A stretch of 49,059 nucleotides of DNA. It comes from Candidatus Bathyarchaeia archaeon. Lineage in GTDB: Archaea; Thermoproteota; Bathyarchaeia; 40CM-2-53-6. Where the stretch lies: contig JBEKSC010000021.1 in assembly GCA_049517415.1 (NCBI GenBank), positions 1-49,059 of the forward strand, given 5' to 3'. The notes under the pieces are model-generated. The model was not told the origin of the DNA. It was given only the letters and a program-made list of their open reading frames with translations, and searched no databases. This document shows, in pieces, positions 7,611-49,058 of this stretch. The position numbers were made by a program, and so were the translations under genes. The first letter of the stretch is position 1; the number at the start of each line of letters is the position of its first letter.

Positions 7611-8666
7611 TTGAGAGTTCTTAGAGAAAGAGAGCTTAAGGATGTTGTTTATGGATCTACGTTGCTAGGGTCTGGCGGGGGAGGCTCACCGGAAAACGGC
7701 ATTCAGCTCGTGAAGAGCATATTGGAGGGTGCCGGCGAGGTTAAGTTGGTTAAACCAGAAGAGGTACCCGACTACAGCATGGTATGCGTCGTAGCTGGTA
7801 TGGGTGCGCCAGAGGCTTTGCTCAAGAGGGGCTGGGAGAACGAAGATGTGCCAGCACTCAAGTTGATAGAGCAGACGACCGGCAAAACCATGGATTATAC
7901 TGTTGCCGTAGAAACTGGAGGCTTTAACTCCTTAACACCCTTGCACGCGGCAGCTGCGAATGGAATCGCTGCAATCGACGGCGCAGGCATAGAGCGTGCC
8001 ATCCCCCAGCTTGAGATGACCATGTTCCACGTGCACAACATACCCATAGCCCCGGTTACACTCGCGGATGCGAGTGGTAATTTTGCCGTTCTATACCCAA
8101 AGGATCCTCCCATGGCAGAGACAATGGCTAGAGGCATAACAGTAGCATTCGGAATGAAAGCTGGCCTCGCTTGTCACCCTATGGCTGGATGGCAACTGAA
8201 GAAATCCGTTATCCCAGGAACCTGCACTAGAGCCGAGGAGGTCGGGAAGTCGATGAGGGAGGCTGTTGAAAAGGGCCAGGACCCAGTCAACGCTGTGGTG
8301 AAAACCACGAAGGGATACGAGATCGCTAGAGGAACTGTGAAGGAAAAGACCGTTGAGACTCGAGGGGGATTCGACTATGGGAAAGTAACTGTCGCCGACG
8401 TAAGGGTTGACTACAAGAACGAGAACATGATCGCCTGGAAAGCTGGAAAGCCTATAGTGATATCTCCCGACCTGACTTGCTGGATGACGACTGATGGCAA
8501 ACCTCTGACTAATGCGGACATAAAGAAAGGAATGGAGGTCGCGGTGATAGGGATAAAGGCTCACGAGAGGTGGAGGACCCCTGAGGGACTCGTGGTATAC
8601 CAGCCCGTCCTCGCGGAGATGGGCTACACAGAAAAATATGTACCCGTAGAGCAGCTTCAAAAATAG
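7611..8666 (+). CDS. DUF917 family protein (copy 1)
   Basis: LLGSGGGG, AGMGAP, ETGGFN, RAIP, GGFDYG, KNENM and PDL motifs. Confidence 0.9.
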   Translation: MRVLRERELKDVVYGSTLLGSGGGGSPENGIQLVKSILEGAGEVKLVKPEEVPDYSMVCVVAGMGAPEALLKRGWENEDVPALKLIEQTTGKTMDYTVAVETGGFNSLTPLHAAAANGIAAIDGAGIERAIPQLEMTMFHVHNIPIAPVTLADASGNFAVLYPKDPPMAETMARGITVAFGMKAGLACHPMAGWQLKKSVIPGTCTRAEEVGKSMREAVEKGQDPVNAVVKTTKGYEIARGTVKEKTVETRGGFDYGKVTVADVRVDYKNENMIAWKAGKPIVISPDLTCWMTTDGKPLTNADIKKGMEVAVIGIKAHERWRTPEGLVVYQPVLAEMGYTEKYVPVEQLQK

Positions 8667-8701
8667 AGAAATAGTGCACCCGGTTTTCGCGTGCTCAGAT
8701 T

Positions 8702-9430
8702 CTACTCCGAGTGCTGTCCCGGAGTGTCTCGTGCAGCGCCGGGTCCTGAAGTTCCACTCTTGAATGAGCTGACTTCTCTATACCACTTCTTCTTTGTTCC
8801 GATCTTGGCTCGCATCTTCCACCTGAGAGACTTCGGTCGGGTCTCAATGAAATCGGAAATCTTCCTGATCTTCGCCCCAACATCCGCCTTGTCTTCCTCA
8901 CTGATGGATGTGAGTCCGGCCACCAGTTTTTCCACGTTCTGGAGGTTAGTCGTCACTGTGTAGTAAAACTCCCAGTCATCCGATAAAATATCGGCGATGT
9001 GCATGCAGTTGACAGTTTCTTTATCAGTCTCGCCTATTTCGTGTTCTCTCAGAAGAACTATCGTATCCTTGAAATCCTTCTCGGTGAACTCGACTATCTG
9101 CATCTTAGTCAAAAGCAATTCAGCCAGAGGGATTGTTGGGAAATCAACTTCCAACCGGTCGCGGAAATTGATCGTGTGGCACATCACCACTTTGTCGTAG
9201 AAAACATCGACAACACGTTTGTTGAAGTTATCTATGTAGATCTGTCTATTCTCCTGCCTGTAGAAGGGTTGGAGCATCCGTTGTTCGTAGCCGACACTGA
9301 GGATCAGTTTGGTGAGATTGCCGGCCTGTTTGCCGTATCCAACAACATCCAAGTCCGAAAGCGCTCTTCCCAGGGACTTGTGGATACCGGTAAACTTGGG
9401 ACAGTGTAATCTAATCGCTGTCGCTCCCAT
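8702..9430 (-). CDS. uncharacterised pol-beta-superfamily nucleotidyltransferase (true start probably upstream, ~9500-9530)
   Basis: GATAIRLH...SDLD, VDVF and KDFKD motifs. The frame stays open upstream (DFAEEALRIIKSAHERGIVLRA) without ATG/GTG/TTG. Confidence 0.7.
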   Translation of the reverse strand: MGATAIRLHCPKFTGIHKSLGRALSDLDVVGYGKQAGNLTKLILSVGYEQRMLQPFYRQENRQIYIDNFNKRVVDVFYDKVVMCHTINFRDRLEVDFPTIPLAELLLTKMQIVEFTEKDFKDTIVLLREHEIGETDKETVNCMHIADILSDDWEFYYTVTTNLQNVEKLVAGLTSISEEDKADVGAKIRKISDFIETRPKSLRWKMRAKIGTKKKWYREVSSFKSGTSGPGAARDTPGQHSE

Positions 9431-9634
9431 GGCTCTTAGGACTATCCCTCTCTCGTGCGCACTCTTTATGATCCGAAGCGCTTCTTCAGCGAAGTCTGGT
9501 CGTGGATGTGAGTCTTCAGTCGTAGTGCATTCCCCGGTGGGAGTGAGAAATGAATTTATGTTATGTAAAAGCCTTCCCTGAGATATTTCTTATATCGTAG
9601 CTCATTATTCCTGTGCAATCCAATCGATCTGAGG

Positions 9635-10582
9635 TTGAAGTGCTTGAGTAGGATCTTCTACGCCTGTGATGTCCACGGAAGTCAAATTGTCTGGAAAAAG
9701 TTCCTCCAAATGGGAGGATACCATAAAGCAGATGTGTTGATGATGTGCGGCGATCTAACCGGAAAAGCAATCGTGCCCATAGTCAAACGCGGGCAAGACG
9801 AGTGGTACTACGCGCCATTAGGCAAGGAAGAAGTCCTGCATTCGCCGGACGCGGTGAAAGCGGCAATGGATAAGATGGATGACAGAGGCTGGTACCCGTT
9901 TGAAACCACTCCAAACGAGGTTGAAGAACTGAAGGCCAACCCAAACAAGGTCAATGAACGCTTCAGCGCTCTTATGAAAGACAAACTCAGCGAGTGGCTC
10001 GAGATGGCAAAAGCATTGGACAAGAGTACTAAAGTAATCGTGAGCCCAGGCAATGATGATCGCTTCGATATTGATGAGGTATTCGAGGAAAATGATCGAG
10101 TCATCAATCCGCTCAATAGAGTCGTTGACATCGATGGGATTCATCAACTCATAAGCTGCGAGTGGACGAACCCTACTCCATGGAACACACCGCGCCAGTG
10201 TTCTGAAGAGGAGTTGAGCAAGAGGCTCGAGAAGGAGTTCAAGAGAGTGGACAAATATGACAATTTGATTTGCAACTTTCATGCTCCTCCACTGAACACT
10301 GTTCTTGACGTGGCGCCCAAACTCGACAAGGACAAGAAACAGGTGATGCAATTCGGAAATCCAGTTAACATAAATGTCGGAAGTAAGTCGATCAGGCAAG
10401 CCATTGAACGATATCAGCCGTTTATGACCTTGCACGGTCACATACACGAATCATGCGGTTTCGAAAACATTGGGAAAACAGTTTGCATTAATCCTGGATC
10501 AGAATACGAATCTGGGCTGCTGAGGGGTTATGTTATTGATCTCCCACCGAAGAAGTTCGAGTTTTGGCGCGTTGAAGCCTAA
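9635..10582 (+). CDS. Icc-related metallophosphoesterase (COG2129-like)
   Basis: DVHG, GDLTG, PGNDD, HAPP, HGHIHE and NPGS calcineurin-like motifs; the start may be the TTG at 9644. Confidence 0.9.
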   Translation: MKCLSRIFYACDVHGSQIVWKKFLQMGGYHKADVLMMCGDLTGKAIVPIVKRGQDEWYYAPLGKEEVLHSPDAVKAAMDKMDDRGWYPFETTPNEVEELKANPNKVNERFSALMKDKLSEWLEMAKALDKSTKVIVSPGNDDRFDIDEVFEENDRVINPLNRVVDIDGIHQLISCEWTNPTPWNTPRQCSEEELSKRLEKEFKRVDKYDNLICNFHAPPLNTVLDVAPKLDKDKKQVMQFGNPVNINVGSKSIRQAIERYQPFMTLHGHIHESCGFENIGKTVCINPGSEYESGLLRGYVIDLPPKKFEFWRVEA

Positions 10583-10584
10583 GA

Positions 10585-10648: not shown

Positions 10649-12256
10649 CTACTCAGGTGGGACCTCGGAGAAGATCTTTTCCGGCTCCAAGCCCATCTTG
10701 CTGTTGCGTTGGCTGAAGACCATGTACCCTAGCATTCCAAGTCCCATGATTGCCACAGTTATGTAGATGGATGTTGTAGTCACCGTTGCAACTCCCGCAA
10801 ACAGTATCACGTACTCAAGTACTGCTGAGACCAAGCCTAGAATCGCCATGACCGGAAAGCCGGCAACTTCCCATTTGTATCCTCTCTCATAGATGCGCGG
10901 TCTCTGGAATGGCAATGCGATGGCCGATTCTGACCACCAGATCACTAGTAAAGTGGCCAAGATGAATAGACTCACTGACAATACAATCGGGATAAATGCT
11001 GCGACAACAACGAAGACTACTTGCATCAGAAAGCAGTAGATCCAGCTATGTGTAGGAGCATGCCACCTCGGAGACACGTAAGCCATTGTCTTTGGCATAT
11101 ATCGATCGAAAGCCATGGCGAACATTGGTCTTGTAGTCCAGAAGTAACCGTGAGGAATAAGACCTACCATTGATATGAATGGAATCAGAAGTATGATTGT
11201 TGAAAGCGTGAGGTTAGGTGTCAAAGAGGCAGCGAACACTGATAGGTTAGGGCTCAATCCCGGATTAATCTTAAGTTGACTTGCGTATCCGTTAATTACG
11301 AAATTGTACATAGATATGAAATCGCCGAAGGAGTAGATGAGCGACCCAGAGGCTCCGACTGCGAACAGTGCTAGGATGACTCCGGAAAATCCTATTCCAA
11401 TCATTATTGTCTTAGTGGGTGACGACATTTCTCCGACAAGCGGTGACGCATTGTCTGGATAGAGAAAACCTCTTGCGACAAGAACGCATCCAATCGTTGC
11501 ATCCCAGCTGAATGCCGCAGGCTTCCAGCCATTTGCTTTTGCTACGTTCACAATCTCGTTGTATGCCCCGTTTCCCCAAACAGAATCCCAAGCTGCTGGA
11601 ACGCTGGCTGCAGGGTGTAATAGGAAAATCGCTATCATGATCATGGTGCCGATTATAGTTATCCCGCTGAGAATAACCATCGACCTCTTCAACGTGCCAG
11701 CGCCGAAGAAATCGATGAGTCCCCCAACGATAACTAGCGCCAAAGCTATTCCTATCAATGCTCCTCGGCTTGTCAACGCTTGGCCAGTAGCAGTAAGTGA
11801 TGGATCATGAGTGAGTGCTCCGGTAGCTAGCAAGGCCGTCGAGAGAAAGCCTGCTGCAATGAATGAATTCGTGGCGTTAGCTATGGGATTCCATATAATA
11901 GAACGCCAGCCTTCCATCATTCCGAAGAGAGGATGCAGACCCCGAGCTATAACAACATAGTTTGCTCCAGCACGAGGCATACAGACACATAGAAGCGCGA
12001 GCGCAACTCCGTATATTATCACAAGGATTCCTGCGAAGACAAATGAGAGCACTATATTAGCTCCAGGAAACAGAAATGGCATAATGGCAATCAACAGGAA
12101 GTACCAAGGGTTCAAAGAAGCCTTCAATGGAAAGAACAAGACGGACCAAGGTCCGATTTCTCGAGTTAGACCTGACGCTTCTCTAGCGAATATCAGCGGT
12201 TTATCTGACAAAGATTTTCCCCCATTGAATTTGCATCTCGGACAAGTCATCTTCAA
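10649..12256 (-). CDS. APC-superfamily amino acid/amine permease
   Basis: FAREASGLTRE N-terminus, MPRAGANY, RPMFAMAFDR, ~12 hydrophobic helices; likely start TTG at 12211. Confidence 0.88.
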   Translation of the reverse strand: MKMTCPRCKFNGGKSLSDKPLIFAREASGLTREIGPWSVLFFPLKASLNPWYFLLIAIMPFLFPGANIVLSFVFAGILVIIYGVALALLCVCMPRAGANYVVIARGLHPLFGMMEGWRSIIWNPIANATNSFIAAGFLSTALLATGALTHDPSLTATGQALTSRGALIGIALALVIVGGLIDFFGAGTLKRSMVILSGITIIGTMIMIAIFLLHPAASVPAAWDSVWGNGAYNEIVNVAKANGWKPAAFSWDATIGCVLVARGFLYPDNASPLVGEMSSPTKTIMIGIGFSGVILALFAVGASGSLIYSFGDFISMYNFVINGYASQLKINPGLSPNLSVFAASLTPNLTLSTIILLIPFISMVGLIPHGYFWTTRPMFAMAFDRYMPKTMAYVSPRWHAPTHSWIYCFLMQVVFVVVAAFIPIVLSVSLFILATLLVIWWSESAIALPFQRPRIYERGYKWEVAGFPVMAILGLVSAVLEYVILFAGVATVTTTSIYITVAIMGLGMLGYMVFSQRNSKMGLEPEKIFSEVPPE

Positions 12257-12514: not shown

Positions 12515-13624
12515 ATGACTCAACGGGTGTTGTATAAGGAGGATTTCGCGAATGTAATTGCTGGCGCCACGTTGCTTGGCTCTGGAGGGGGAGGATCGCC
12601 GAAGGGCGGAATGGACTTGATGGCTTCCGCGTTGACCGAACCTTCCAAAGGAGTGCGACTTGTGAGTGCAGACTCCGCACCTGACACAGACATGGTTGTC
12701 ATGGTGGCGGGCATCGGCTCTCCAGTGGCTTTCTTGAAGAAAGGTTTCGATGTTGAAGCGGTCTACGCATTTGACGCTATGGAGAGACTATACATGATGG
12801 CAGGGCAGAGAGCCTCTTTCCTAGTTCCAGGAGAGATAGGCGGCTTCAACTTAGTGACCCCAATGTATGTGGCAGTCAAGAAGGATGTTCCAGTAATAGA
12901 CGCCGATGGAAACGGCAGAGCGGTCCCAGAACTGGAGACATCTCTCTGGCCCTTATATGGCATACCAAACTCACCATGTGTTCTTGCAGACAAGAAAGGA
13001 AATGTCGTCGTACTCTACACGCGGGATCCTCTCGACTCCGCCACATGCGAGCTAGTGGCACGGTACGTAGCGACCGCCTTTGAAAACACTTGTGCGTTTG
13101 CCACGTGGACGATGAACGTGAAATCTCTGAGAGAGGTTTCGGTGTTGAATAGCGTGACAAGGTGTGAAAATATCGGAAAAGCCATCAACGGCGCAGTATC
13201 TGCGGGCAAGGATCCTGTCAATGCTGCAATTGAAGCGAGCTCAGGCTACGAATTGATCAGAGGAATCATCACCGATATAACGACCAAGACTGTAACTGGG
13301 TTCGACTTCGGGACGACGGCGATAGAGGGAACGGACAAGTACAAAGGAAAGAAGATGAAAATAGACTTCAAGAATGAAAACATGCTCGCATGGAAAGAGG
13401 AAGGTGAAGCCGCCGCGATGGTTCCCGACCTCATCTGTCTGATGACAACGAAGGGAGAACCCTTGACGAACGCGGACACGAAGACGGGCATGGAGATAGC
13501 TGTCATCGGGATTCCAGCGCCAGAAAAGTGGAGGAAGCACCCGAGAGGATTCGAAGTCTGGAGACACATAATAGAAAAAATAGGTTACACGGAATCCTAC
13601 AAGCCCATTGAAAAGCTCGTATAA
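12515..13624 (+). CDS. DUF917 family protein (copy 2)
   Basis: LLGSGGGG, AGIGSP, EIGGFN, DADGNGRAVPEL, GFDFG, KNENM, VPDLI. Confidence 0.92.
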   Translation: MTQRVLYKEDFANVIAGATLLGSGGGGSPKGGMDLMASALTEPSKGVRLVSADSAPDTDMVVMVAGIGSPVAFLKKGFDVEAVYAFDAMERLYMMAGQRASFLVPGEIGGFNLVTPMYVAVKKDVPVIDADGNGRAVPELETSLWPLYGIPNSPCVLADKKGNVVVLYTRDPLDSATCELVARYVATAFENTCAFATWTMNVKSLREVSVLNSVTRCENIGKAINGAVSAGKDPVNAAIEASSGYELIRGIITDITTKTVTGFDFGTTAIEGTDKYKGKKMKIDFKNENMLAWKEEGEAAAMVPDLICLMTTKGEPLTNADTKTGMEIAVIGIPAPEKWRKHPRGFEVWRHIIEKIGYTESYKPIEKLV

Positions 13625-13642: not shown

Positions 13643-14362
13643 TTGATTGAGTTGAAGATCTTCATTATCGTCCCTCTCCTAAAGCAGAAAGCCTTTGAGG
13701 AAGAAGCCTACTCGGAACTGAAGGCCGTGGCCAGAAACGATGTTGAGCTAGTTGTCGATAGCATAGTGAAGGGCCCCGCTTCGATCGAGTCCGAGTACGA
13801 CGAAGTGTTGGCGGGTCCGTGGATAACTGAAAAGGTTGGGTGGGCCGACAAGAATGGCTTCGACGCCATCATCATAGATTGTATGGGAGACCCAGCCCTC
13901 GCAGCTGCTAGAGAGATCACCAGAATTCCCGTAGTAGGCCCCTGTCAATCGTCAATGGCACTTGCTTCAACCATAAGTGAACGATTCACGGTGGTCACTG
14001 TCCTGAAGCGGCTCATACCTCTGTTCTGGAGAAATGCCAAGAGGTATGGACTCGAGTCCAAGGTTGCATCAGTACGATCCGTTGAAGTGCCAGTCCTAGA
14101 GCTAGACAAGAAGAGAGATGAAGTCAAAGCGATCTTGCTGGATGAATCAAAGAAGGCATTGGACGAAGACAGCGCTGACACAATAATATTGGGATGCACA
14201 GGTATGGTGGGGATGGCAAGGGAACTGCAGGAAGCACTAAAGGCTCCTGTCGTAGACCCTGCCATCGCGTCGTTGAAACTAGCTGAAGTGCTCGTCGACA
14301 TGAAGCTATCGCACACTAAACTTGTCTATGCTGAACCCCCACCAAAAGAGAGGCGACTTTAG
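13643..14362 (+). CDS. hydantoin racemase / Asp-Glu racemase family protein (copy 1)
   Basis: GPASIES; two catalytic cysteines in DCMGDP and ILGCTGM. Confidence 0.9.
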   Translation: MIELKIFIIVPLLKQKAFEEEAYSELKAVARNDVELVVDSIVKGPASIESEYDEVLAGPWITEKVGWADKNGFDAIIIDCMGDPALAAAREITRIPVVGPCQSSMALASTISERFTVVTVLKRLIPLFWRNAKRYGLESKVASVRSVEVPVLELDKKRDEVKAILLDESKKALDEDSADTIILGCTGMVGMARELQEALKAPVVDPAIASLKLAEVLVDMKLSHTKLVYAEPPPKERRL

Positions 14363-15398: not shown

Positions 15399-15944
15399 CT
15401 GGATACCTTAGAAGCGATCAAAACCAGAAGGGCAATTCGAAAATACAAACCTGAAATGGTTCCCAATGATATGATAGAGACAATACTGGAAGCGGGAAGA
15501 TGGGCGCCCACGGGTTCAAACCTACAACCGTGGAAGTTCATCGTTGTCAAGAACCCGATTACACTAGACTTGATTCGTAAGCTTTCCCCGGGTTATTTCG
15601 GAGAAGCACCATTGGCGATCGTCATATGCTCCGATAAGGCTACTGCCTATGAAAAAGGGGGCGAGTTGGGCCGAGACTATCTCACTATCGCGGATTGCTC
15701 AATGGCAGCTGAGAACATGCTTCTTGCCGCGCATGTCCTCGGCTTGGGTGCTTGCCCTCTGAAATCGTTCGCATCACCAGCAATAAGTGAAATCCTGGAA
15801 GTGCCTTCAGGAATCGAACCTGAGTTGATCTTGATAATCGGCTATCCTGACGAAACACCGACTCCTCCGCCAAAGTATGAACTTGAGGAAATAGCGTTTC
15901 TTGACAAATATACTCAAGTCTGGCCAAGGAGGAAGGAGGGCTAG
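15399..15944 (+). CDS. nitroreductase family protein (CTG start inferred)
   Basis: (M)DTLEAIKTRRAIRKY N-terminus, WAPTGSNLQPW, DCSMAAENMLLAAHVLGLGAC, IGYP; in-frame TGA two codons before the CTG. Confidence 0.9.
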   Translation: MDTLEAIKTRRAIRKYKPEMVPNDMIETILEAGRWAPTGSNLQPWKFIVVKNPITLDLIRKLSPGYFGEAPLAIVICSDKATAYEKGGELGRDYLTIADCSMAAENMLLAAHVLGLGACPLKSFASPAISEILEVPSGIEPELILIIGYPDETPTPPPKYELEEIAFLDKYTQVWPRRKEG

Positions 15945-15950: not shown

Positions 15951-16265
15951 TTGAAGAATGAAAAGAAAGTTACTGGCGACGACTACTTGCTCGAGCTAGT
16001 AGCATTCCTGGCAACGAGCGCGAGAGGGTGCGTAGGCGAACCGCCAAGTTACGGGCCTTTCAGACTCATTGATGCACTGAGCAGACTCATCGATCTACCG
16101 AAGTACGCAACATGCTTGAAGGACGACGAATTCCTTCGAAAGATCAAAGCCGAGATCGACGAGAAGAAATTCCTGGTCATGACCAACGATGAGGCTTTTC
16201 GAAATATGCTCGACAGTGTTGTTCTTCAAGTATCCAGACAGCTGAGAGCTCGTGCGAGCGCCTGA
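15951..16265 (+). CDS. DUF6092-like small protein
   Basis: ELVAFLATSARGCVGEPPSYGPFRLIDALSRL signature (recalled family); starts 6 nt after the nitroreductase stop, with a GGAGG RBS. Confidence 0.75.
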   Translation: MKNEKKVTGDDYLLELVAFLATSARGCVGEPPSYGPFRLIDALSRLIDLPKYATCLKDDEFLRKIKAEIDEKKFLVMTNDEAFRNMLDSVVLQVSRQLRARASA

Positions 16266-19590: not shown

Positions 19591-19815
19591 GACTAGATTT
19601 TCGAGGCCCGGGCACAGGTGCCGATGACTTGACCGGAGGGGTACAGTGGGGTACACTTTGCCACCTCCCTGGAGGGGGTCGACGCGATGGCGATGGTTCA
19701 TGGCACGAGTCGCTACCTGTGTGAATGGATGAAAACTCTCTAGTCCTGTGGGCGTAGAAAGTTCTCCGCGATTGGTAAGCCCGACGACCCACCGACCATT
19801 CTCGGTCGGGTGTGT
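19591..19815 (+). ncRNA. candidate structured non-coding RNA or inverted-repeat element
   Basis: Nested complementary arms 19591-19625 / 19709-19745, an internal hairpin at ~19635-19667, and a ccgacc/ggtcgg hairpin at ~19792-19809; no convincing ORF. Confidence 0.3.
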
Positions 19816-29893: not shown

Positions 29894-29899
29894 AGAGAG

Positions 29900-34058: not shown

Positions 34059-34071
34059 TTTAAGCTTTTAA
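34059..34071. promoter_or_regulatory. back-to-back TATA boxes of the divergent hyuB/hyuA promoter
   Basis: tttaagcttttaa: TTTTAA (+) ends 25 nt before ATG 34097 and TTAAA (-) ends 26 nt before TTG 34032, consistent with leaderless transcripts. Confidence 0.6.
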
Positions 34072-34096
34072 GTCCGTAAAATGCCGTTAGCACCAC

Positions 34097-40330: not shown

Positions 40331-40608
40331 AACTTTCTGTTGTTCGGTTCCGGCAGAACCCTTTAACGTTATTCTTCTCTTTTCAGGCTTGCTCTCACAA
40401 TGGTATAGAAACTGATATCGTTGCGTGAACCACAGCTTGGCCCGTCTGGGAACTCGTAACGCCAGCCTTCGAAAGCACCATCGATTTCTCATGCAAACAA
40501 AGGGCGCGAATGTTCGTCCAGTCTATTTCTTTTCTGGCCACGCTTCAACTTAGCATGGCCGTTGGTATAGCGCGGACTTATATTTGCGTGCTCATCGAAG
40601 TGTAGTAT

Positions 40609-41646
40609 ATGGGTAAGATAGTTACCGTTGGAGAAGTGTCAGCTGGTCCCGGAGAAATCAAACACGGTCCAGCAACTTGGGTTGAGTTGAGGGACGCGAC
40701 GCGGGTATCTTTACCCGTGATAATCATAAACGGCCATGATGACGGCCCAAAGGTTGTACTGTGTGGGGCAACACATTCTACGGAGTTGTCCGGAACAGCA
40801 ACAATTCATGCCCTAATGAAAAGAATTGACCCTTCTAAGTTGAAGGGTAGCATAATCGCTTTTCCAACAGCCAATCCTCTTGCAATGCAGTTCGGGGCTT
40901 ATGTGTCTCCTCATGATGGGGCCAACCTTGCCGTCTCGTATCCGGGAAGCGAAAGTGGCAGCATAACGGGTCGCTTTGCGAACTTCATCTGGAAGAATGC
41001 GACACTCGGTTCAAACTTGATAGTGGACCTTCATGAAAACGTCAAACCATGCCTCAAGTTCACACTAACCGGCTACAGCAAGGACAAGGACGCTGAGAAG
41101 CGAGCTCTCGAGCTGGCAAGAGCATATGGCGTGACGGTCATTCGTAATCGTTCATCTGAAGTTGACACCGGTACTGCCGGAATGAAAGTCGGTGACCTTT
41201 ACTGGGCCGAGTTGGGGCTGACAAACGGAATTCCGGGCTTCACGGCCGAACTGGAAGGGAGTTTCGAATCAAGATTTGATGAGGCTCAGTCATCTGTGGT
41301 GAGAGTTGGAGTGAGAGGCATTATGAACACTCTTAGTACGCTAGGTATGGTTCAAGAGAAAGTACAGCCTCAAACGGAAACCCTCGTCCTCAAGGGCGAC
41401 TTCAAATCGAGCGGGAACATTCGCGCAAACAGGGGAGGGCTCGTCAACAGGTTCGTTGATGTCGGCGTTAAGCTGGCAAAGGGAACGAAGATCGCAGAAG
41501 TCATCAACCCCTACGGAGAAGTAACTGAAACCATCAAGATGCCGATCGACGGCTACATCTGGGCTTGGAGCATCATAGGCGCTGACAACTTCAACTGGTG
41601 CGTGCAAGCTGGATCACCGATAGCCTATTTGTTTTCGGAGCTGTAG
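40609..41646 (+). CDS. succinylglutamate desuccinylase / aspartoacylase (M14) family deacylase
   Basis: HSTE, ANP, VDLHE, TAELEG, C-terminal biotinyl-like domain. Confidence 0.87.
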   Translation: MGKIVTVGEVSAGPGEIKHGPATWVELRDATRVSLPVIIINGHDDGPKVVLCGATHSTELSGTATIHALMKRIDPSKLKGSIIAFPTANPLAMQFGAYVSPHDGANLAVSYPGSESGSITGRFANFIWKNATLGSNLIVDLHENVKPCLKFTLTGYSKDKDAEKRALELARAYGVTVIRNRSSEVDTGTAGMKVGDLYWAELGLTNGIPGFTAELEGSFESRFDEAQSSVVRVGVRGIMNTLSTLGMVQEKVQPQTETLVLKGDFKSSGNIRANRGGLVNRFVDVGVKLAKGTKIAEVINPYGEVTETIKMPIDGYIWAWSIIGADNFNWCVQAGSPIAYLFSEL

Positions 41647-41757: not shown

Positions 41758-42522
41758 TTATTGAATTACGTACCCGCCGTCCACGAGCATGCATTCGCCA
41801 AGAACGAATGATGCACGGTCCGAAGCGAGGAAGAGCACGGCTTCGGCTATCTCTTCTGGCCTTCCCATTCTCCCAATTGGATGGCTGTCGATTACCTGTT
41901 TTCGGACTTCAGCCGGATCTGGGAAGAGGCTAAGCTCACGATCCACCATCGCTGTGTCGACAGCGCCAGGGCAAACGCAGTTTACCCGTATCCCGTCTTT
42001 CGCGTATTCAAGCGCCATTGCCCTAGTCAACTGAACAATCGCGCCCTTTGACGCACAGTACGCCGTGAATTTGTCAAAGCCTACGAAGCCAAGCTGAGAG
42101 GCGATGTTAACCACTACACCCTTTCTTTTGGCAATCATGATTGGGAGAGCGTACTTGGAGACAAGAAATGCTGCCCTCGCGTTGGTATTTAATACCGCAT
42201 CCCACTCCTCCACAGTTGTATCAACAAGCCGTTTCACGAGCTCCCTGCCAGCGTTATGGCAGACGATGTCTACCGTACCGTACCTTTTCACGGTCTCGTC
42301 GACGAGTTTCTTGACCTGTGAGCTATCCTGAACGTCAGTCTTCAAGAAAAAGGCCTTGCCTCCTTTTTGTTGAATAGCCTTAACGGTCGCTTCTCCCGTT
42401 TCCACATTTCGAGCACCTATCATAACGCTCGCATTCTCTCTTGCAAAGACTTCAGATATTGCTCGCCCGATCCCGGAATTGCCTCCGGTCACAATGGCAA
42501 CCTTGCCGTTCAACTCCATCAT
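41758..42522 (-). CDS. short-chain dehydrogenase/reductase
   Basis: TGGNSGIG, HNAG, YCASK, VCPG, VDGG. Confidence 0.95.
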   Translation of the reverse strand: MMELNGKVAIVTGGNSGIGRAISEVFARENASVMIGARNVETGEATVKAIQQKGGKAFFLKTDVQDSSQVKKLVDETVKRYGTVDIVCHNAGRELVKRLVDTTVEEWDAVLNTNARAAFLVSKYALPIMIAKRKGVVVNIASQLGFVGFDKFTAYCASKGAIVQLTRAMALEYAKDGIRVNCVCPGAVDTAMVDRELSLFPDPAEVRKQVIDSHPIGRMGRPEEIAEAVLFLASDRASFVLGECMLVDGGYVIQ

Positions 42523-42648
42523 CCAAACCCTCTACATGCAATTTGTTCCTAGGCCATATATGAAGTCAAGCCCTACATAATTGGATTGTACGCGAGGCGT
42601 CAAACTTATTGAACTCACATTGTGCATCGCATTGGCACGTGGAATACT

Positions 42649-42768
42649 TCGGTTCGAAAGTATGTTTCAGACTTGATGGTAGATGCAGGACTTAAAGTGA
42701 AGGTGGATCCGTTCGGGAACCTCATTGGACGATCTGGAAGTCCGTATGAGCCTCTTCCAGTCGTCGCT
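42649..42768 (+). pseudogene. N-terminal remnant of an M20 N-carbamoyl-L-amino acid / allantoate amidohydrolase (HyuC/AllC-like)
   Basis: VRKYVSDLMVDAGLKVKVDPFGNLIGRSGS..PLPVVA matches the family N-terminus; similarity stops just before the expected GSHxD, at the convergent neighbour's stop. Confidence 0.7.
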
Positions 42769-42771
42769 TGG

Positions 42772-43842
42772 CTATTTTCCTACTTCCGATGCCAAGTCGG
42801 TGAGTTCCGGATGCACCACGCGACCTTCTCTCGTGACTTCCACTCCGTCAAGTGTAACCGAGCAGTTGAGGCATATGCCATCGACGTGTGATATGGCTGA
42901 AACTGGCATACCCTTTCCATTATAGTACCAGGACTGATAGCCGATCCCCCACTCAGTGCAACCCCATACTCTTTCATCTTCCACAGTCACCCCGGTGAGT
43001 TTTGCTCCGGGGTTGAATCCATAGCAGACATGCGCCAGTTTGTACATGTTTGCATCATCCAACTTGGCAAGCCACTTCTCGTAAATCTTTGCCTCGTCGC
43101 CGCCTGAAATTCCAGCTATCTTGCCGTTCTTGATTTCCAGTTTTACGGGGGTTCTGAGGGTTCCGAAGTATGCTTCGCCTCCACCAGCTAAAGCTCCATC
43201 GAATACTATCTGGCCGCTGATCGTTTCTTCGACTGGAGCCCAAATTATTTGACCTCCGAGGAAGTGCGCGTGCGCACCACAGACATTTGGAATAGAGCAA
43301 TCCATGGTTTCAGTGACGACGGGTCGATGATTCATGTTGAATGAGATGTCGTTACCGGCGGGGTTCGTGATTCGTACATTGTCAGCGTTATGGGTCATCT
43401 CTGCTACTTTGGTGAGAAAAGGATTGAGGAGTTGCCAGTTCACCTTTCCAACACATCTAACTAGTCGCTCGACATCTATGCCTCCCAGGCAGAGGTACCT
43501 TACCTTCTTGGATTTGATAGCCTCCTCCCATGGTGTCGAGTAGAGGAGCCATTGATTGTTGAACTCAATCCAAGCGTCGGCTTTGGGGATTGCAGCCTTG
43601 ACTGGTTCTGGCAAATAGGCGTCTGTAGCTTTCCCAAATCCGGGAGGAGTGGTATGCCAAATGACCGCAACCTTGGCATCGAGAGCTTGCGCCACCCGAG
43701 CTACAGCAGCCGCTGACCGGAAATCTGTCTCTGTATCAATGGTAACCAAGAAGTTCTCCCCTGGTTTGATCTTCAGACTGTCCCTTACGAGAAAGTCAGC
43801 CGCCTTCGCAAGTTCCAGTTCAAGATATTCGGGCAATCCCAA
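42772..43842 (-). CDS. M29-fold protein with NicX-like metal site (copy 1)
   Basis: KPGENFLVT, ITNPAGND, GQIVFDG, AHVCYGFNPGA, EDER, SHVDG. Confidence 0.82.
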   Translation of the reverse strand: MGLPEYLELELAKAADFLVRDSLKIKPGENFLVTIDTETDFRSAAAVARVAQALDAKVAVIWHTTPPGFGKATDAYLPEPVKAAIPKADAWIEFNNQWLLYSTPWEEAIKSKKVRYLCLGGIDVERLVRCVGKVNWQLLNPFLTKVAEMTHNADNVRITNPAGNDISFNMNHRPVVTETMDCSIPNVCGAHAHFLGGQIIWAPVEETISGQIVFDGALAGGGEAYFGTLRTPVKLEIKNGKIAGISGGDEAKIYEKWLAKLDDANMYKLAHVCYGFNPGAKLTGVTVEDERVWGCTEWGIGYQSWYYNGKGMPVSAISHVDGICLNCSVTLDGVEVTREGRVVHPELTDLASEVGK

Positions 43843-43866: not shown

Positions 43867-44928
43867 TTACTCTCTTCCGAGTTTCTTCGCAAGTATTGCG
43901 AGCTGTGGGTCCGTAAATTTACCCTTGTCCAATAATTGCCGTCCATCAATCCAAATAGATGAGTTGAGGCATATTCCATCCGCGTGAGAAATTGCATTGA
44001 TTCCCTTTGCTTTGAAGGCTGGACCCTGTTGGCCGAAGCCCCACTCGGTGCACCCCCAGACCCTTTCATCTTCAGTGCATAGGCCTGAGAGTCTAGCGCC
44101 GGGGTTGAACCCGTAGCAGACATGCGCAGCATAGTACATATTCGGGTCATTCAGCTTGTGCAACCACTTCTTGACGGCTTCAGCCTCCAATCCGCCTGAG
44201 AACTCAACGGCCTTACCGTTCTTTACGGTGACTCGGACCGGTGTCCTGAGGATTCCGAGATCCGCTTCAGCACCACCGGAATATGACCCATCATAAACGA
44301 TCGTACCGTTAATACTCTCTTCAATTGGCGCCCACGCTATCTGACCAAGAAGAAAATGCGGCCCAGGCACATCAGCAAAGAGCTCATTCCTCACAGGCCG
44401 TTTCGGATCGTTCTCGAAATAGACATCTGTTCCAGCTGGCGTTGTTATTCTCATCTTTCTCCCCTTCAAAGTCATTTCTGTGAGTATCTCCTGCAGCTCG
44501 GCTTGCGTGTCAATATCAATTCTTCCGACGCACCTAACAATCTGATCCACATTCAATCCTCCCAAGAACATGTACCTGACCTTTCCCTTTCCTTCGACTG
44601 CTGGTTTCATCGCGTTATCCCAGGGCGTCGAGTATAACAGCCATTGATTGTTCAACTCGATCCAGACGTCGGTATTAGGGATAGCAGCCCACAAAGGTTC
44701 AGGAAGATATGGATCTGCGACTTTGCCATAGCCTCTTGGTGTTGAGTGCCAAGCAACCATGACTTTTGCGTCAGCTGCTTCCGCAGCTTTCGCGATTTCC
44801 TCAGCAACCCGGAACTCCTCAAGTCCGTCAATCGTAATCAGGACACTTTCGCGAGATTTCACCTTGCACAATTTGTTGATAACTACATTCGCAGTCTTGC
44901 CGAGTTCCATATCAAGAAGTTGTGGCAA
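43867..44928 (-). CDS. M29-fold protein with NicX-like metal site (copy 2)
   Basis: Tandem paralogue: ITTPAGTD, GTIVYDG, AHVCYGFNPGA, EDERVWGCTEWG, SHADG. Confidence 0.82.
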   Translation of the reverse strand: MPQLLDMELGKTANVVINKLCKVKSRESVLITIDGLEEFRVAEEIAKAAEAADAKVMVAWHSTPRGYGKVADPYLPEPLWAAIPNTDVWIELNNQWLLYSTPWDNAMKPAVEGKGKVRYMFLGGLNVDQIVRCVGRIDIDTQAELQEILTEMTLKGRKMRITTPAGTDVYFENDPKRPVRNELFADVPGPHFLLGQIAWAPIEESINGTIVYDGSYSGGAEADLGILRTPVRVTVKNGKAVEFSGGLEAEAVKKWLHKLNDPNMYYAAHVCYGFNPGARLSGLCTEDERVWGCTEWGFGQQGPAFKAKGINAISHADGICLNSSIWIDGRQLLDKGKFTDPQLAILAKKLGRE

Positions 44929-45213: not shown

Positions 45214-46956
45214 ATGACCCAACCCGACTCACGCCTTCAACCGCTGAAGCATGAACGTGTGCCCGTACCGGAAATATACGTTGAAGGCAAACCGGCCCTA
45301 GTCCTAGATAAGCGGACGAAACGGAGAACCAAAGAAGAGGCTCGCGACGGCAACCTTTCGGCCGTTCAGTTCATGCAGGATCTAGCCAAAACCATCTATG
45401 GTCCACGTAGACTGATCAAGGTTATTTCAACCCAAGATGGCAATTATCCGATGACCTTCATAACGTCAGATCTACAGAGTGTCCTGAAGCGAATCCAGCT
45501 CAAACACCCTGCAGCGCAACTGATAGCAGGGGCGGCCATTGCAACTTATCGCGAGAAGGGGGATGGTTGTGTCTCAACTTTGCTGCTTGCCGCGAGTATC
45601 TTGACGGGCTGCAGGCGTCTGCTCGCTCGCAAGACTCACGTGAACACGGTAATCGACGGCCTCTCCCTTGCCTATAAGCGAACAATGAAAAAGGCACCTA
45701 GACTTGCGCTTGCTGGCAGGAATGAGCCTATCGTTGAGGTGCGACAAGCCATTAAGAACTCTCTCGAAGGAAAACTCTCGCCCCAAGATCATGATGTCAT
45801 ATGTAAGCTGCTATTCCGAGCCGTCGAGATCGTTGGGCTCTCGAACCTTGACGGACCGGACGCGGATGCAATAGTTGACGTGAAAAAAGTCACTGGAGCT
45901 TCGTTGGCAGAATCTCAGATCGTTGAAGGCGTTGTTCTGACTCAAGAGATTCCCCATGATAGGATGCCACGAAGAGTGGAACATGCCCGAATAGCACTTA
46001 TTCAAGGTGAACTTAGAATTCCCAACAAGAAGATTTCGCGGTATCAGGATTACAGTTTTGAATTCGACAGCCCCGAAAAACTGAGCGGCTTCGACAAGTC
46101 AAAGGAGACCTTCTTGGAAGGCCGAGCGGCCAACATTATTGAAACTGGCGCAAATGTCATTCTTGTTTCCGAAGGGGTTGATGACTTACTTCTCGAATAT
46201 TTTGCTGACCGTGGTATACTGGTCATTCGTCGTTTTCCTCCAGTCGAGTTCGAGAGAGTAAATCGCATACTGGGCGGAAGAAGGATTACTAACCCATTGA
46301 TAATCACACGTGAAGACTTGGGAAGTGCAGAATTGGTCGAGGAGCGGAAGCTTGGAAAGGACAAGCTGATTTTCATATCTGGTTGTAGTACCCCGAAGTC
46401 GGTTGACATTCTCCTAAGAGGAAATGTGAACTGGGTACTTGACGACATAGAACGCGTGATGAAAGGCGCAATCAAATCAGCCACAGCAGTTGCAAAGAAT
46501 CCACGGATGGTTTGGGGCGGGGGAGCATTCGAACAAGAAATTGCTAGAGACTTGTACGACTATGCTGAGAGTATTGCCGACCGGAGACAACTTGTTGTAA
46601 GGTTAGTTGCCGAGGCGTTCGAATCCCTTCCAGCCATGCTGGCTGAGACGGTCGGAATGACAGCAGTGGATGTGACGACAGAACTTCGACACCGGCACGC
46701 TAAGGGCGATAAGTCAGCGGGGGTTGATGTGATGAACAATCGAATAGCGAGAATGTCCACGCGAGGCATTCGTGATTCTCTCGATATCAAGCTACAAGTA
46801 ATCACGACCGCGTTCGAGACGGCGATAACGCTTCTGAGGATAGATGACTTGATCATTGCCCCAGACCTGCCCGCGGCCGAGCGACACTATCTGGAGCGAA
46901 TAAGAGGAACATCACGAAAAGCGCTCAAAGCAAAAGGCGCCCCGCTAACAGAATAA
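45214..46956 (+). CDS. divergent group II chaperonin (thermosome-like)
   Basis: HPAA, GDG, MPRRVEHARIAL, GANV, ILLRG, GGGAFE, LLRIDDLI; ATP-site motifs degenerate. Confidence 0.88.
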   Translation: MTQPDSRLQPLKHERVPVPEIYVEGKPALVLDKRTKRRTKEEARDGNLSAVQFMQDLAKTIYGPRRLIKVISTQDGNYPMTFITSDLQSVLKRIQLKHPAAQLIAGAAIATYREKGDGCVSTLLLAASILTGCRRLLARKTHVNTVIDGLSLAYKRTMKKAPRLALAGRNEPIVEVRQAIKNSLEGKLSPQDHDVICKLLFRAVEIVGLSNLDGPDADAIVDVKKVTGASLAESQIVEGVVLTQEIPHDRMPRRVEHARIALIQGELRIPNKKISRYQDYSFEFDSPEKLSGFDKSKETFLEGRAANIIETGANVILVSEGVDDLLLEYFADRGILVIRRFPPVEFERVNRILGGRRITNPLIITREDLGSAELVEERKLGKDKLIFISGCSTPKSVDILLRGNVNWVLDDIERVMKGAIKSATAVAKNPRMVWGGGAFEQEIARDLYDYAESIADRRQLVVRLVAEAFESLPAMLAETVGMTAVDVTTELRHRHAKGDKSAGVDVMNNRIARMSTRGIRDSLDIKLQVITTAFETAITLLRIDDLIIAPDLPAAERHYLERIRGTSRKALKAKGAPLTE

Positions 46957-47081
46957 TGCACCTTTGCAAACCCTCAGTTCTCAATAGTCGTCGAGAAACG
47001 ATCTCCGCGTCTTGAATCACGGGGGAATCAAGCCAAAGTGATATAAAGCTGAAAACGCAGAGATACGCCGTGTGATTGTTC

Positions 47082-47828
47082 ATGAAGATCAAAGTAATTC
47101 TTCCGATTACGTCGAAGGGTCTTGACGCAGAAAGTGAGAAAGAGTTTAGGAGCTACGCCTTCACCGGCACGGAAGTTAGCGTGACTCATCTTGACTACGG
47201 GCCGGCTTCTGTCGAGAGCGAGCTAGATGAAGCCCTTTGCATTCCTGATTTCCTTCGCAAAGCACAAGAGGCCGAAGCTGCGGGCTATGATGCGGTCATA
47301 AGCGACTGCTTCGGAGACCCAGGAGTCAAACCTGCTCGAGAAGTACTCAAGATTCCAGTTATTGGTGCGGCTGAAGCCTCAATGCACTTTGCCGCAACTC
47401 TCGGCCACAGATTTTCTGTCGTGACTGTGCTGCCCAACATCCTTCCTATGATCGAAAACCTCGCGAAACTGTACGGACTCGAGAATAAGCTTGCGTCCGT
47501 GCGCTCGGTCGACATACCAGTGCTTGAGCTCGAAAACAAAGAGAAGACTATCAGGGCTTTGCACAAAGAAATGCTCGCAGCCATAAAGGAAGATAACGCG
47601 CATGTCCTCGTTCTCGGATGTACCGGGATGATGGGAGTTGCCAAAGAGTGTGAGAAATTACTGAAACAGGATGGATATGAGGTACCAGTGGTCAACGCGG
47701 CTGCGGCCAGCCTAAAGTTCATCGAGGCATTAACCGCTATGGGCCTTAAGCCAAGTCGCCTGACTTCAATGACTCCACCCGAGAAGACCCGAACTGGATT
47801 CCCAGTTGCGCAAACAGTCGCAGCTTGA
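47082..47828 (+). CDS. hydantoin racemase / Asp-Glu racemase family protein (copy 2)
   Basis: GPASVES, DCFGDPG, VLGCTGM; TATA-like atataaa at 47041. Confidence 0.9.
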   Translation: MKIKVILPITSKGLDAESEKEFRSYAFTGTEVSVTHLDYGPASVESELDEALCIPDFLRKAQEAEAAGYDAVISDCFGDPGVKPAREVLKIPVIGAAEASMHFAATLGHRFSVVTVLPNILPMIENLAKLYGLENKLASVRSVDIPVLELENKEKTIRALHKEMLAAIKEDNAHVLVLGCTGMMGVAKECEKLLKQDGYEVPVVNAAAASLKFIEALTAMGLKPSRLTSMTPPEKTRTGFPVAQTVAA

Positions 47829-48841
47829 ATACTCCGCTAAGGACGAAAACATTGCCTTTCCCTAAAGCATCAAAGGCAGAAGAGAAACTGCTACTGAAGA
47901 CAGCTGAGAGTCTGGTCAAGACCAGCCTAGCTGTCAAGCCGGGGGAGAAGTTCCTTGTTATTACGGACATTGAGACTTATCCCATTGGCAACGCTTTCTT
48001 TGACGCTGGTGTGAAAGCCAGTGCTGAGACCATACTTACGGTCATCAAAGAGCGCACCCGTCACGGTGAGGAACCCCCGGATCCGGTGGCCAAAGCTTGG
48101 GAGCAGGCGAACGTCTACATCGTCCCCACGAAGTACAGCCTAACACATACACAGGCTCGCAAAGCCGCTACGCAGGCGGGTGCAAGGGGCGCAACCATGC
48201 CAATGATCACCGTGCCAATGTTCAAAACCGGGGCTATTACAGCAGATTACTCGAAAGTGAGTAAGCTTTGTGAGCAGATGGGCACCCTGATGGATGGTGC
48301 AAAAGAGGTTCGCATCACCTCAGACGCGGGAACGGACATTACGATGTCAATCGAGGGTCGAATGAAGGAGCGAGATACAGGCCTACTCCTCAAATCCGGC
48401 GACTTTGGCAACTTGCCCGCCGGCGAGGTCTTCTGCGCGCCTGTGGAAGGGTCCGCGAATGGAACACTTGTATTCGACGGAGCAATAGCAAGTGTCGGAA
48501 TGCTGAAGAAACCGGTAACAGTAACCGTGGAGCAAGGTTTCGCGACAAAGATGACGGGCGGCCCGGAAGCAACGAAATTCGATACCCTGCTAGCAGCAGT
48601 GAAGAAGAAGGAAGCATACAACGTGGCCGAGCTAGGAGTTGGATGTAACCCGAACGCCCGATTGATTGGAATAATTCTCGAGGACGAGAAGGTGTACGGA
48701 ACAGTTCACGTCGCTTTCGGCGACAATAGCACCTTCGGCGGCAACGTTCAGGCAGGCATCCACTTAGATGGGATCATGCGCAAACCAAGCCTATTCCTAG
48801 ATGAAAAATCCGTCATAGAGAAAGGTACCTGGACTATCTAA
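47825..48841 (+). CDS. M29 (AmpT/AmpS-like) aminopeptidase with canonical ligands
   Basis: NLPAGE, AELG, EDEK...VHVAFG, HLD; overlaps the racemase stop. Confidence 0.88.
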   Translation: MNTPLRTKTLPFPKASKAEEKLLLKTAESLVKTSLAVKPGEKFLVITDIETYPIGNAFFDAGVKASAETILTVIKERTRHGEEPPDPVAKAWEQANVYIVPTKYSLTHTQARKAATQAGARGATMPMITVPMFKTGAITADYSKVSKLCEQMGTLMDGAKEVRITSDAGTDITMSIEGRMKERDTGLLLKSGDFGNLPAGEVFCAPVEGSANGTLVFDGAIASVGMLKKPVTVTVEQGFATKMTGGPEATKFDTLLAAVKKKEAYNVAELGVGCNPNARLIGIILEDEKVYGTVHVAFGDNSTFGGNVQAGIHLDGIMRKPSLFLDEKSVIEKGTWTI

Positions 48842-48865
48842 CGATTCAGCGCGTTCAACTCTCGT

Positions 48866-48908
48866 AAAAAACGTGGGTGGCTGGAGACCCGATAACGGGA
48901 GCCAGCCA
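48866..48908 (-). terminator. hairpin plus T-tract terminator between convergent genes
   Basis: tggctgg/ccagcca and cccg/cggg stems followed on the minus strand by T6, just downstream of the DUF917 stop. Confidence 0.55.
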
Positions 48909-48923
48909 ATAGGGTGGAAGTTC

Positions 48924-49058
48924 CTACTTTCGACCTTCCTTCATCACTGTCTCAATGGGTACGTAGGGAATGTCATACCCAAAGTGCTTTGGACCCAGGA
49001 TTGCCAACCCCTTAGGACTTCTGAAGGGCTCGCGACCGCGTAGTCCTAGCACCGAGAC
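48924..49058 (-). CDS. DUF917 family protein (copy 3), C-terminal fragment only
   Basis: Manual translation VSVLGLRGREPFRSPKGLAILGPKHFGYDIPYVPIETVMKEGRK* aligns with the C-termini of the other two DUF917 copies; not in the ORF track. Confidence 0.8.
   Translation of the reverse strand, partial: VSVLGLRGREPFRSPKGLAILGPKHFGYDIPYVPIETVMKEGRK

Follow-up and report, generated by a model that had tools for sequence, protein, structure and literature searches.

What ring substrate, if any, unites the hydantoinase-like, racemase-like and peptidase-like genes that crowd together in one region of an archaeal genome? We addressed this question for contig JBEKSC010000021.1 (contig C21) of a Candidatus Bathyarchaeia archaeon (assembly GCA_049517415.1), a complete contig of 49,059 nucleotides, referred to here as the window, from a host genome of 2.65 Mb that is listed at 100% completeness and 6.9% contamination; among named records, the nearest relatives of its proteins are likewise Candidatus Bathyarchaeia. 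A sequence-only reading had proposed a single anaerobic catabolic region, built around three DUF917 genes, that racemises and opens cyclic amides. The broad idea is supported by a co-occurring core of genes, and the genes do cluster, but the single pathway around three DUF917 genes does not hold: the region is a mixed-strand island in which a trans-4-hydroxy-L-proline dehydratase (HypD) and probably an APC-permease cassette are separate modules. The conserved core consists of a dipeptide ATP-binding cassette (ABC) importer, two-Cys racemases, an AlbA/AlbB-like flavoenzyme, DUF917 proteins, NicX-type proteins and an M29 peptidase. Judging from sequence, we put at roughly even odds (about 0.5) the reading that this is a catabolic island whose core salvages cyclic dipeptides (2,5-diketopiperazines), compounds that withstand ordinary peptidases, with HypD as a separate hydroxyproline module. 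The core leans to cyclic dipeptides because of the oxidase pair, the racemase pocket and the missing carbamoylase.

A cyclodipeptide-oxidase-like pair in a catabolic setting

Two adjacent genes overlooked by the sequence-only reading are predicted to encode an AlbA/AlbB cyclodipeptide oxidase (CDO)-like pair, here CDO-A and CDO-B (Table 1). The best Protein Data Bank (PDB) matches of CDO-A are 8UC3 (E 9e-31) and 9EXV (E 3e-27) and those of CDO-B are 9EXV_C and 8UC3_D; these entries are AlbAB and NdasCDO, the two solved cyclodipeptide oxidases, both of which are diketopiperazine oxidases. Beyond the adjacent two-gene layout, the window pair resembles them at the flavin mononucleotide (FMN) site, as CDO-A keeps R24, R28, S54, C135 and P136 of AlbA, with Lys in place of R175 and G138, and CDO-B keeps E33, P34, Y37, R41 and M78 of AlbB, among which E33, Y37 and R41 are each retained in 34 of 35 aligned homologues. 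The AlbAB paper suggests that specificity for diketopiperazines may stem from residues close to the FMN (bioRxiv 2023.09.25.559410). The window pair differs in its catabolic gene context and at the position of Cys115, which in ungapped register is Asp in CDO-A and in 37 of 38 homologues; HMMER set a neighbouring Cys there only via a gap opened in the helix. Because of this Asp, covalent FMN is not expected and the cofactor is likely held non-covalently.

The cluster type itself is already in print as a bioinformatic observation. Andreas and Giessen reported 274 CDO clusters, 88% of them without a synthase, that are enriched in hydantoin racemases, DUF917 proteins, dipeptide importers and peptidases (bioRxiv 2023.09.25.559410; PMC11055893); these include anaerobes and archaea, and the authors leave the substrate open (bioRxiv 10.1101/2023.09.25.559410). 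The window fits this type in joining a CDO to a racemase, DUF917, a dipeptide importer and peptidases, and, unlike oxidases associated with a cyclodipeptide synthase (CDPS), it showed no such synthase among the 41 selected open reading frames (ORFs), of 85 listed in the window, that the hidden Markov model (HMM) scans took in. Fused CDO-AB forms, likewise part of the published type, are present in the host genome, which holds three CDO loci and seven NicX-type genes. The fused genes (C14:44619-45518 and C16:54733-55647) each adjoin a NicX-type gene and lie near a racemase and an AstE deacylase, a family also found in the window. Neither a NicX-type protein nor a chaperonin, both of which occur in the window, is named in the text of that paper available to us. 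What the window contributes is an archaeal example that is unusually expanded, arguments for diketopiperazines at the level of single residues, a HypD module embedded among the other genes and a degenerate chaperonin bound to the module. CDO-B had no match among the plasmids searched.

Racemase pockets and the missing carbamoylase

The two two-cysteine hydantoin-racemase-like genes of the sequence-only reading were recovered by HMM scan with both catalytic Cys residues kept, and their pockets bear on the ring that they may turn over. Position 12 of KpAllR is Asn or Asp in 100% of the allantoin-hydantoin racemase clade, and the pocket pattern of the NozR clade is I/V, F/L, T/S, V/I (PMC12661438). 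Both window racemases lack Asn/Asp12 and Met17; the one at 47076 matches the NozR-clade pattern fully, and the one at 13643 has Leu, not I/V, at the first position. NozR is a diketopiperazine stereoisomerase that epimerises cyclo-Trp-Trp (PMC10156859), and it resembles the window proteins in its two-Cys family and pocket pattern but is biosynthetic; the likeness is one to a published clade logo. The neighbourhood racemases (42 rows, three of them duplicated between L012 and L040; Met17 in none, Val119 in 27) are hybrid, and the pocket test is therefore only suggestive.

To use hydantoins, a cell requires a carbamoylase. The HyuC remnant noticed earlier is real but tiny (Table 1), no carbamoylase above the TIGR01879 cut-off was found in the host genome, and a HyuC motif matched in none of the 75 NicX-type loci described below. 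The D-hydantoinase of the host is encoded on another contig, and its three unassigned carbon-nitrogen hydrolases are also on other contigs, off the islands. A classical hydantoinase process was rejected in view of the remnant-only HyuC, the lack of an intact carbamoylase and the D-hydantoinase on another contig. As for diketopiperazines, a 2013 paper calls their ring-opening enzymes unknown and reports two D-hydantoinases as inactive on nine diketopiperazines (PMC3852281); in the open-access literature we found no paper that names diketopiperazine-hydrolysis genes or characterises these clusters.

Candidate ring-opening hydrolases and peptidases

Two of the three proposed DUF917 genes are complete, and the third is only a 44-residue C-terminal stub at the contig end. 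Copy 2 retains its conserved acidic residues and is a candidate ring-opening hydrolase. Copy 1 carries Ala and Gln in place of Asp131 and Glu139 (copy-2 numbering), which are present in 39 and 38, respectively, of 40 neighbourhood homologues, and because these two near-invariant acidic residues are lost it is possibly inactive or altered. The lead that a DUF917 member may be an S-methyl thiohydantoin desulfurase was not borne out: the window proteins share the fold family, but both score only 73-93 bits against the cut-offs of 440 and 450 for thiohydantoin and S-methyl-thiohydantoin desulfurases (NF058529, NF058532), and no urocanase-family gene lies nearby, the sole urocanase of the genome being on contig C19 and not near any DUF917 gene. 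Ergothioneine catabolism, for which a urocanase-family hydratase and a carbamoylase would be expected, was rejected because of the missed desulfurase cut-offs and this urocanase position. No paper in the searched open-access literature treats thiohydantoin, desulfurase and ergothioneine together. On a Haloferax plasmid (L115) and a Rhizobium plasmid (L116), a short HyuA (~515 aa) stands beside two or three DUF917 genes without HyuB, so that DUF917 may replace HyuB in those two loci; the HyuA copies of the host genome are all of the long form.

The sequence-only reading had also counted three M29-fold proteins. Only the one at 47825-48841 matches Pfam M29, carrying the two-metal ligand set of that family, while those at 42772 and 43867 are tandem NicX-type proteins in which Q/H/E/E/H/D replaces the M29 ligand set, each position being kept in 116-123 of 123 homologues. 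A structure model of the NicX-type protein (pLDDT 96.6) gives Z scores of 33.4 to NicX, 26.1 to AmpS and 23.9 to AmpT, with a root-mean-square deviation from NicX of 3.2 Å over 323 residues at 18% identity. Within the family (n = 123), H269 is invariant, H315 and D317 are found in 121 members and Q196, E286 and E288 in 122, and E295 is also conserved. H269, H315 and D317 align with the NicX iron ligands His265, His318 and Asp320, and E182 (101/123) and H191 (108/123) align with Glu177 and His189, which in NicX bind the N-H and carbonyl oxygen of the substrate ring (PDB 7CN3, PMC7910607). Fold, His-His-Asp triad and this residue pair are thus alike, in contrast to the NicX ligand position Ser302, which is Gly297 in 122 of 123 members as placed by motif alignment, to the extra Gln and Glu residues, and to the mostly anaerobic hosts. 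Acidic residues persist at the M29 second-metal positions. The NicX-type protein may accordingly be a metal-dependent hydrolase that recognises its substrate by the amide edge of a ring; the residues concerned cannot decide between rings, because hydantoins have the same edge.

A previously proposed creatinase-like hydrolase fits the M24-fold protein at 23693-24904, but this protein has lost the ligand at two metal-binding positions and carries Glu for Asp at a third. The second M24 protein, at 25219-26373, had been overlooked and has its metal-ligand positions intact. The idea that both are prolidases was dropped after comparison of their metal ligands, and ectoine catabolism by DoeA/DoeB was rejected at 68-87 bits against cut-offs of 403-613.

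Recurrence of the core in other genomes

The co-occurrence of these genes, which the sequence-only reading had named as its test, was assessed in 75 NicX-type loci (median 13 kb) representing the best 80 of 430 confirmed matches in the genome collection, and in samples of 151 genomes from the class and 401 from the phylum. The genes for DUF917, the oxidase pair, racemase, NicX-type protein and dipeptide importer recur together in anaerobic bacteria and archaea, the opposite of the missing co-occurrence that would have refuted that reading. Across the 75 loci we found DUF917 in 28, a racemase in 28, CDO-B in 26, a dipeptide-type binding protein or permease in 27, a peptidase in 29, canonical M29 in 19, HyuA in seven and a carbon-nitrogen hydrolase in four; the M20 protein that recurs in these neighbourhoods is of PepT-like type. 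Peptidases, and not carbamoylases, are the customary neighbours, a point in favour of diketopiperazines. Of the 75 loci, 52 have one or more of DUF917, racemase and CDO-B, and 17 have both DUF917 and CDO-B. Where CDO-B occurs (n = 26), a dipeptide importer accompanies it in 15 loci and an NCS1 permease in four. The hosts include Clostridia, Thermotogae, Spirochaetota, Anaerolineae and Nitrososphaeria and are mostly anaerobic lineages. Two bacterial loci (L075, L084) carry same-strand runs of DUF917, CDO-A, CDO-B, NicX-type, binding protein, dppBCDF and DUF917 genes.

At the level of whole genomes, 20 of the 151 class members have a NicX-type gene, 51 have DUF917 and eight have CDO-B, with DUF917 in all 20 NicX-type genomes; DUF917 lies within seven of the 20 class loci fetched around NicX-type genes. 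The same five of 15 relatives in the host family carry both a NicX-type gene and DUF917. The reverse test gave a weaker result: CDO-B occurs in 30 of the 401 phylum genomes, and of the 29 that remain without the host, 20 had their flanks fetched, eight of these showing core partners.

A proposed route and its alternatives

In the route that we propose from gene content, family identities, conserved residues and co-occurrence, the ABC importer would take up the ring compound, the racemases would interconvert its stereocentres, as NozR does, and the flavoenzyme, with FMN likely non-covalent, could add or remove an alpha,beta double bond without oxygen as an optional step. The ring amide would be hydrolysed by DUF917, by the NicX-type metal protein or by both, and the linear dipeptide would be cut by the M29 and M24 peptidases. 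HyuAB may use ATP to open five-membered lactams, pyroglutamate for example, and the degenerate chaperonin may be devoted to folding or assembling the proteins of the module. That the whole amounts to an undescribed anaerobic cyclic-dipeptide pathway, with an oxygen-independent AlbAB-type enzyme, NozR-type epimerases, a NicX-fold hydrolase or DUF917, and an ATPase-dead chaperonin as archaeal assembly factor, is a tentative proposal that we hold to be less likely than not. If the cyclic-dipeptide reading is right, the gene set would provide a testable role for four families that lack characterisation (DUF917 beyond its use in ergothioneine breakdown, non-CDPS CDO, NicX-type proteins and NozR-type racemases) and a route by which sediment archaea could use peptide leftovers.

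Several observations weigh against cyclic dipeptides as the substrate of the core. The AlbA Ser54 position is Gly in 20 of 38 CDO-A homologues, CDO-AB has no cluster partners around it in 12 of the 20 loci from the phylum and in four of the eight from the class, and the 75 NicX-type loci include close kin, some from the same genome or genus. The island genes occupy both strands, with HyuA/HyuB and dppBC/dppDF head-to-head, and the region is therefore not one operon or transcription unit. Characterised DUF917 families, judged by their names, act on thiohydantoins; PucR-type regulators and NCS1 permeases occur in 17 and 16 of the 75 loci; Asn12 is found in 24 of the 42 racemase rows; and the AlbAB paper favours hydantoin- or allantoin-like substrates for non-CDPS clusters (bioRxiv 2023.09.25.559410). 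This second group of points, along with the HyuC remnant in the window, a creatininase-family gene on the C14 continuation described below and a carbon-nitrogen hydrolase in some loci, speaks for a core whose substrates are five-membered rings derived from amino acids that were carbamoylated or otherwise modified (5-substituted hydantoins, thiohydantoins, 2-amino-imidazolones). Hydrolysis at C2 would then fall to DUF917, the racemases would target C5, and the ring would be opened by HyuAB or the NicX-type protein. We hold such a substrate to be doubtful, as neither the genome nor the loci yielded an intact L-carbamoylase, the three carbon-nitrogen hydrolases lie off the islands, the window racemases lack both Asn12 and Met17, the urocanase is remote from DUF917 and the desulfurase cut-offs are missed.

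The mixed strands, the separation of HypD from the core, the frequent solitary CDO-AB genes and the many paralogues, 30 of 35 of which sit on four islands in 4.8% of the genome, would suit a set of scavenging genes for unrelated damaged-peptide products, clustered through a shared niche and with no single ring substrate. We consider such a collection, whose products would be D-residue peptides, pyroglutamyl and N-acyl peptides and hydroxyproline, unlikely, given that the bacterial same-strand core runs imply one substrate class. Least likely is a core that degrades N-heteroaromatic rings (pyridones, hydroxypyrazines), with flavoenzymes reducing the ring and the NicX-type protein cleaving it with oxygen where present or hydrolytically. 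In structure the protein comes closest to NicX (Z 33.4 versus 26.1 for AmpS), the His-His-Asp ligands and the E177/H189 pair are kept and molybdenum dehydrogenases occur in five of the 75 loci, but sequence alignment places Gly297 at Ser302 and acidic residues at the second-metal positions, the hosts are mostly anaerobic lineages, and racemases and peptidases would have no role on flat aromatic substrates.

A separate HypD module

The sequence-only reading held that the sequence does not reveal the substrate, which is overly pessimistic: trans-4-hydroxy-L-proline is readable for HypD, which had been overlooked, and the core leans to cyclic dipeptides by the features named above. The protein at 21189-23546 qualifies as a predicted HypD by family tests: like Clostridioides difficile HypD (6VXC, PMC7077986) it passes the equivalog cut-off, and it keeps all 11 of 11 active-site residues (R156, H160, D278, K326, S334, D339, F340, C434, E436, Y450 and T645), taken from that paper and located by aligning the protein to 6VXC and allowing for 20 tag residues. 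The best match of its activase is NF043069 at 369.5 bits, below the 425 cut-off of that family. Archaeal HypDs have already been reported (PMC6219649), and the enzyme is ordinary as such, if uncommon in the host class, where six of 151 genomes hold it above cut-off. The other five lack NicX-type genes and show no DUF917, racemase or CDO-B gene beside HypD, and HypD occurs in none of the 75 NicX-type loci. This absence and the lack of core neighbours in all five other class genomes rule out HypD as a core part; it is a passenger module, separate from the core. Because pyrroline-5-carboxylate reductase was not found in the host genome, which has ten aldehyde-dehydrogenase matches, the HypD product likely proceeds to glutamate via one aldehyde dehydrogenase. 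Upstream of the activase lies a non-coding stretch of ~190 bp (19718-19899), without an Rfam match, of which copies at 76-88% identity occur on contigs C47, C2, C50 and C16.

A divergent chaperonin associated with the core

The gene at 45214-46956, likewise overlooked, encodes a divergent group II chaperonin that is ~30% identical to the other host chaperonins and scores 392 bits against family cut-offs of 400-671. It has TSDL, GDGCVS and KGA in place of TNDG, GDGTTT and HDA, the nucleotide-site motifs of the housekeeping thermosome. The host genome holds nine group II chaperonin paralogues; the motifs are intact in six of the other eight, and two on C14 (529-2334, 2412-4106) are motif-altered but keep the Asp. 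In a midpoint-rooted tree, which drew long-branch warnings and from which L043 was left out, the window protein and its relatives group in a clade of 16 rows, separate from the housekeeping copies, with support of 100/99.

A chaperonin above 500 bits was found in 11 of the 401 phylum genomes, all 11 of which have CDO-B; four of these were in the query and seven belong to one genus, and with at most three candidates scored per genome the count is a lower bound from few independent lineages. Four other class genomes exceed 800 bits, CDO-B being present in three and DUF917 in all four. Ten loci were fetched around such chaperonins: six have adjoining DUF917 and racemase genes (two of these six being a second, related type outside the clade), three are cut by contig ends and one shares only the binding protein and ABC ATPase. 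Two more divergent chaperonins were found beside CDO-AB (L147, L154). A chaperonin clade without the ATP-site residues travels with the module across several archaeal families; a bond between such a clade and a single catabolic module would be a surprise in itself.

Island architecture, contig ends and remaining genes

Ten of the 35 genes of the island families in the genome sit within 42 kb, whereas 20,000 random placements put at most eight into a stretch of that length. The four islands, comparable ones being found on C3 and C16, were drawn after the fact, and tandem duplicates were counted though not independent; the clustering exceeds chance. The hyuA/hyuB and dppBC/dppDF pairs, usually co-operonic, are oppositely oriented both in the window (26702-36178) and in the C3 island, which suggests frequent local inversions.

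The DUF917 stub that ends the window aligns to residues 339-382 of the DUF917 protein in the related locus L012 at 82%, and the right end of contig C14 aligns to residues 1-312 of the same protein at 77%. The flanking gene order of L012 is compatible with a C21-C14 join, and no DNA overlap between the contig ends was found; the island likely continues for ~26 kb onto C14. There it would include racemases, a NicX-type gene, fused CDO-AB, an AstE deacylase, M24 proteins and the creatininase-family gene. The C14 island (L004, L005) also holds two D-cysteine-desulfhydrase-family pyridoxal phosphate enzymes, a LysA/DokD-like decarboxylase and a cysteine synthase, which fits D-amino-acid breakdown. 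Six contig ends in the genome (C21, C14, C16, C8, C28 and C51) fall inside DUF917 genes, leaving an N-terminal piece at three ends and a C-terminal piece at the other three, which points to a total of five genes and to an assembly that breaks repeatedly at members of the family.

Table 1. Annotated features of the window in order of position (HMM, assigned by HMM scan).
Feature	Position	Strand	Assignment and remarks
DUF917 (S-Me-THD-like) copy 1	7611-8666	+	PF06032/PF20906
Nucleotidyltransferase-like ORF	8702-9589	-	passenger cassette
Metallophosphoesterase	9635-10582	+	passenger cassette
APC permease	10649-12256	-	passenger cassette
DUF917 copy 2	12515-13624	+	conserved acidic residues intact
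Two-Cys racemase	13643-14362	+	PF01177; L, F, T, V at KpAllR 12, 17, 118, 119
CDO-A, AlbA-like flavoprotein subunit	15399-15944	+	nitroreductase fold; probable CTG start
CDO-B (DUF6092), AlbB-like subunit	15951-16265	+	PF19585; 6 bp after CDO-A
Large nitroreductase-fold protein (~400 residues)	18293-19525	+	weak PF00881; weak SagB-type dehydrogenase match; unnamed Atlas clusters
Glycyl-radical activating enzyme for HypD	20222-21184	+	TIGR02494, above cut-off
Predicted trans-4-hydroxy-L-proline dehydratase HypD	21189-23546	+	NF043068, 1343 bits (cut-off 1100)
M24-fold protein, degenerate metal site	23693-24904	+	creatinase or ectoine-hydrolase type by pattern
M24 metallopeptidase	25219-26373	+	five metal-ligand positions intact; Xaa-Pro dipeptidase type; below PepQ cut-off
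Dipeptide-type ABC importer	26702-30796	both	two ATPases (-), two permeases (+)
Aldo-keto reductase with Fe-S domain	31016-32134	-	HMM
HyuB, ATP-dependent lactamase pair	32278-34032	-	
HyuA, ATP-dependent lactamase pair	34097-36178	+	
Family-5 solute-binding protein, dipeptide-binding type	36242-37993	-	PF00496
Class-V aminotransferase	39161-40492	-	HMM
AstE/AspA deacylase	40609-41646	+	HMM
Short-chain dehydrogenase/reductase	41758-42522	-	HMM
HyuC-type carbamoylase remnant	42613-42798	+	TIGR01879, E 3e-4 over ~40 residues
NicX-type protein	42772-43842	-	Atlas family PF26233; no Pfam match in HMM scan
NicX-type protein	43867-44928	-	Atlas family PF26233; no Pfam match in HMM scan
Divergent group II chaperonin	45214-46956	+	degenerate nucleotide-site motifs
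Two-Cys racemase	47076-47828	+	I, L, T, V at KpAllR 12, 17, 118, 119
Short M29-type aminopeptidase	47825-48841	+	PF02073; E/E/E/H/H/D two-metal ligand set
DUF917 stub	48924-49058	-	C-terminal 44 residues, truncated by contig end

Most other genes named by the sequence-only reading stood up in the HMM scans, namely both uptake systems (the APC permease and the dipeptide-type ABC importer), hydantoinase/oxoprolinase A and B, the class-V aminotransferase, the AstE/AspA (M14-like) deacylase and the short-chain dehydrogenase, aldo-keto reductase and nitroreductase folds. The binding protein at 36242-37993 has distant DppA-type peptide-binding matches in the PDB (E ~1e-32), from which its ligand is not assignable. 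HyuB keeps the D44/H105/D108/H130 metal tetrad, as in CapB, and, compared with CapAB, oxoprolinase and HyuAB as described in PMC8453981, the ATP-site motifs of the pair are largely kept, but it scores 498 and 254 bits against the caprolactamase cut-offs of 1000 for CapA and CapB and its substrate is unassignable. The aminotransferase, the deacylase and the short-chain dehydrogenase are candidate downstream enzymes. An aldo-keto reductase of the window type occurs in one of the 75 NicX-type loci, and the large nitroreductase-fold protein has counterparts in 11; in L013 it lies beside CDO-AB.

The APC-permease cassette is probably a module separate from the core. Each of its three genes has 7-10 relatives within the host genome, and the same cassette also adjoins the DUF917 piece on C28; its first ORF had no HMM match and is labelled a presumed nucleotidyltransferase from a motif.

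GC content is ~50% along the entire window, and tRNA and Rfam searches of the window gave no match. To the left of the island (1-5766) lie housekeeping genes for a HerA-like helicase, asparagine-tRNA ligase, a GNAT protein and CTP synthase. Directly left of the island itself, at 6930-7614, are broken reading frames without an HMM match, presumably an integrase or transposase remnant by resemblance; part of this stretch is found again at C14:41639-41801, directly left of the C14 island.

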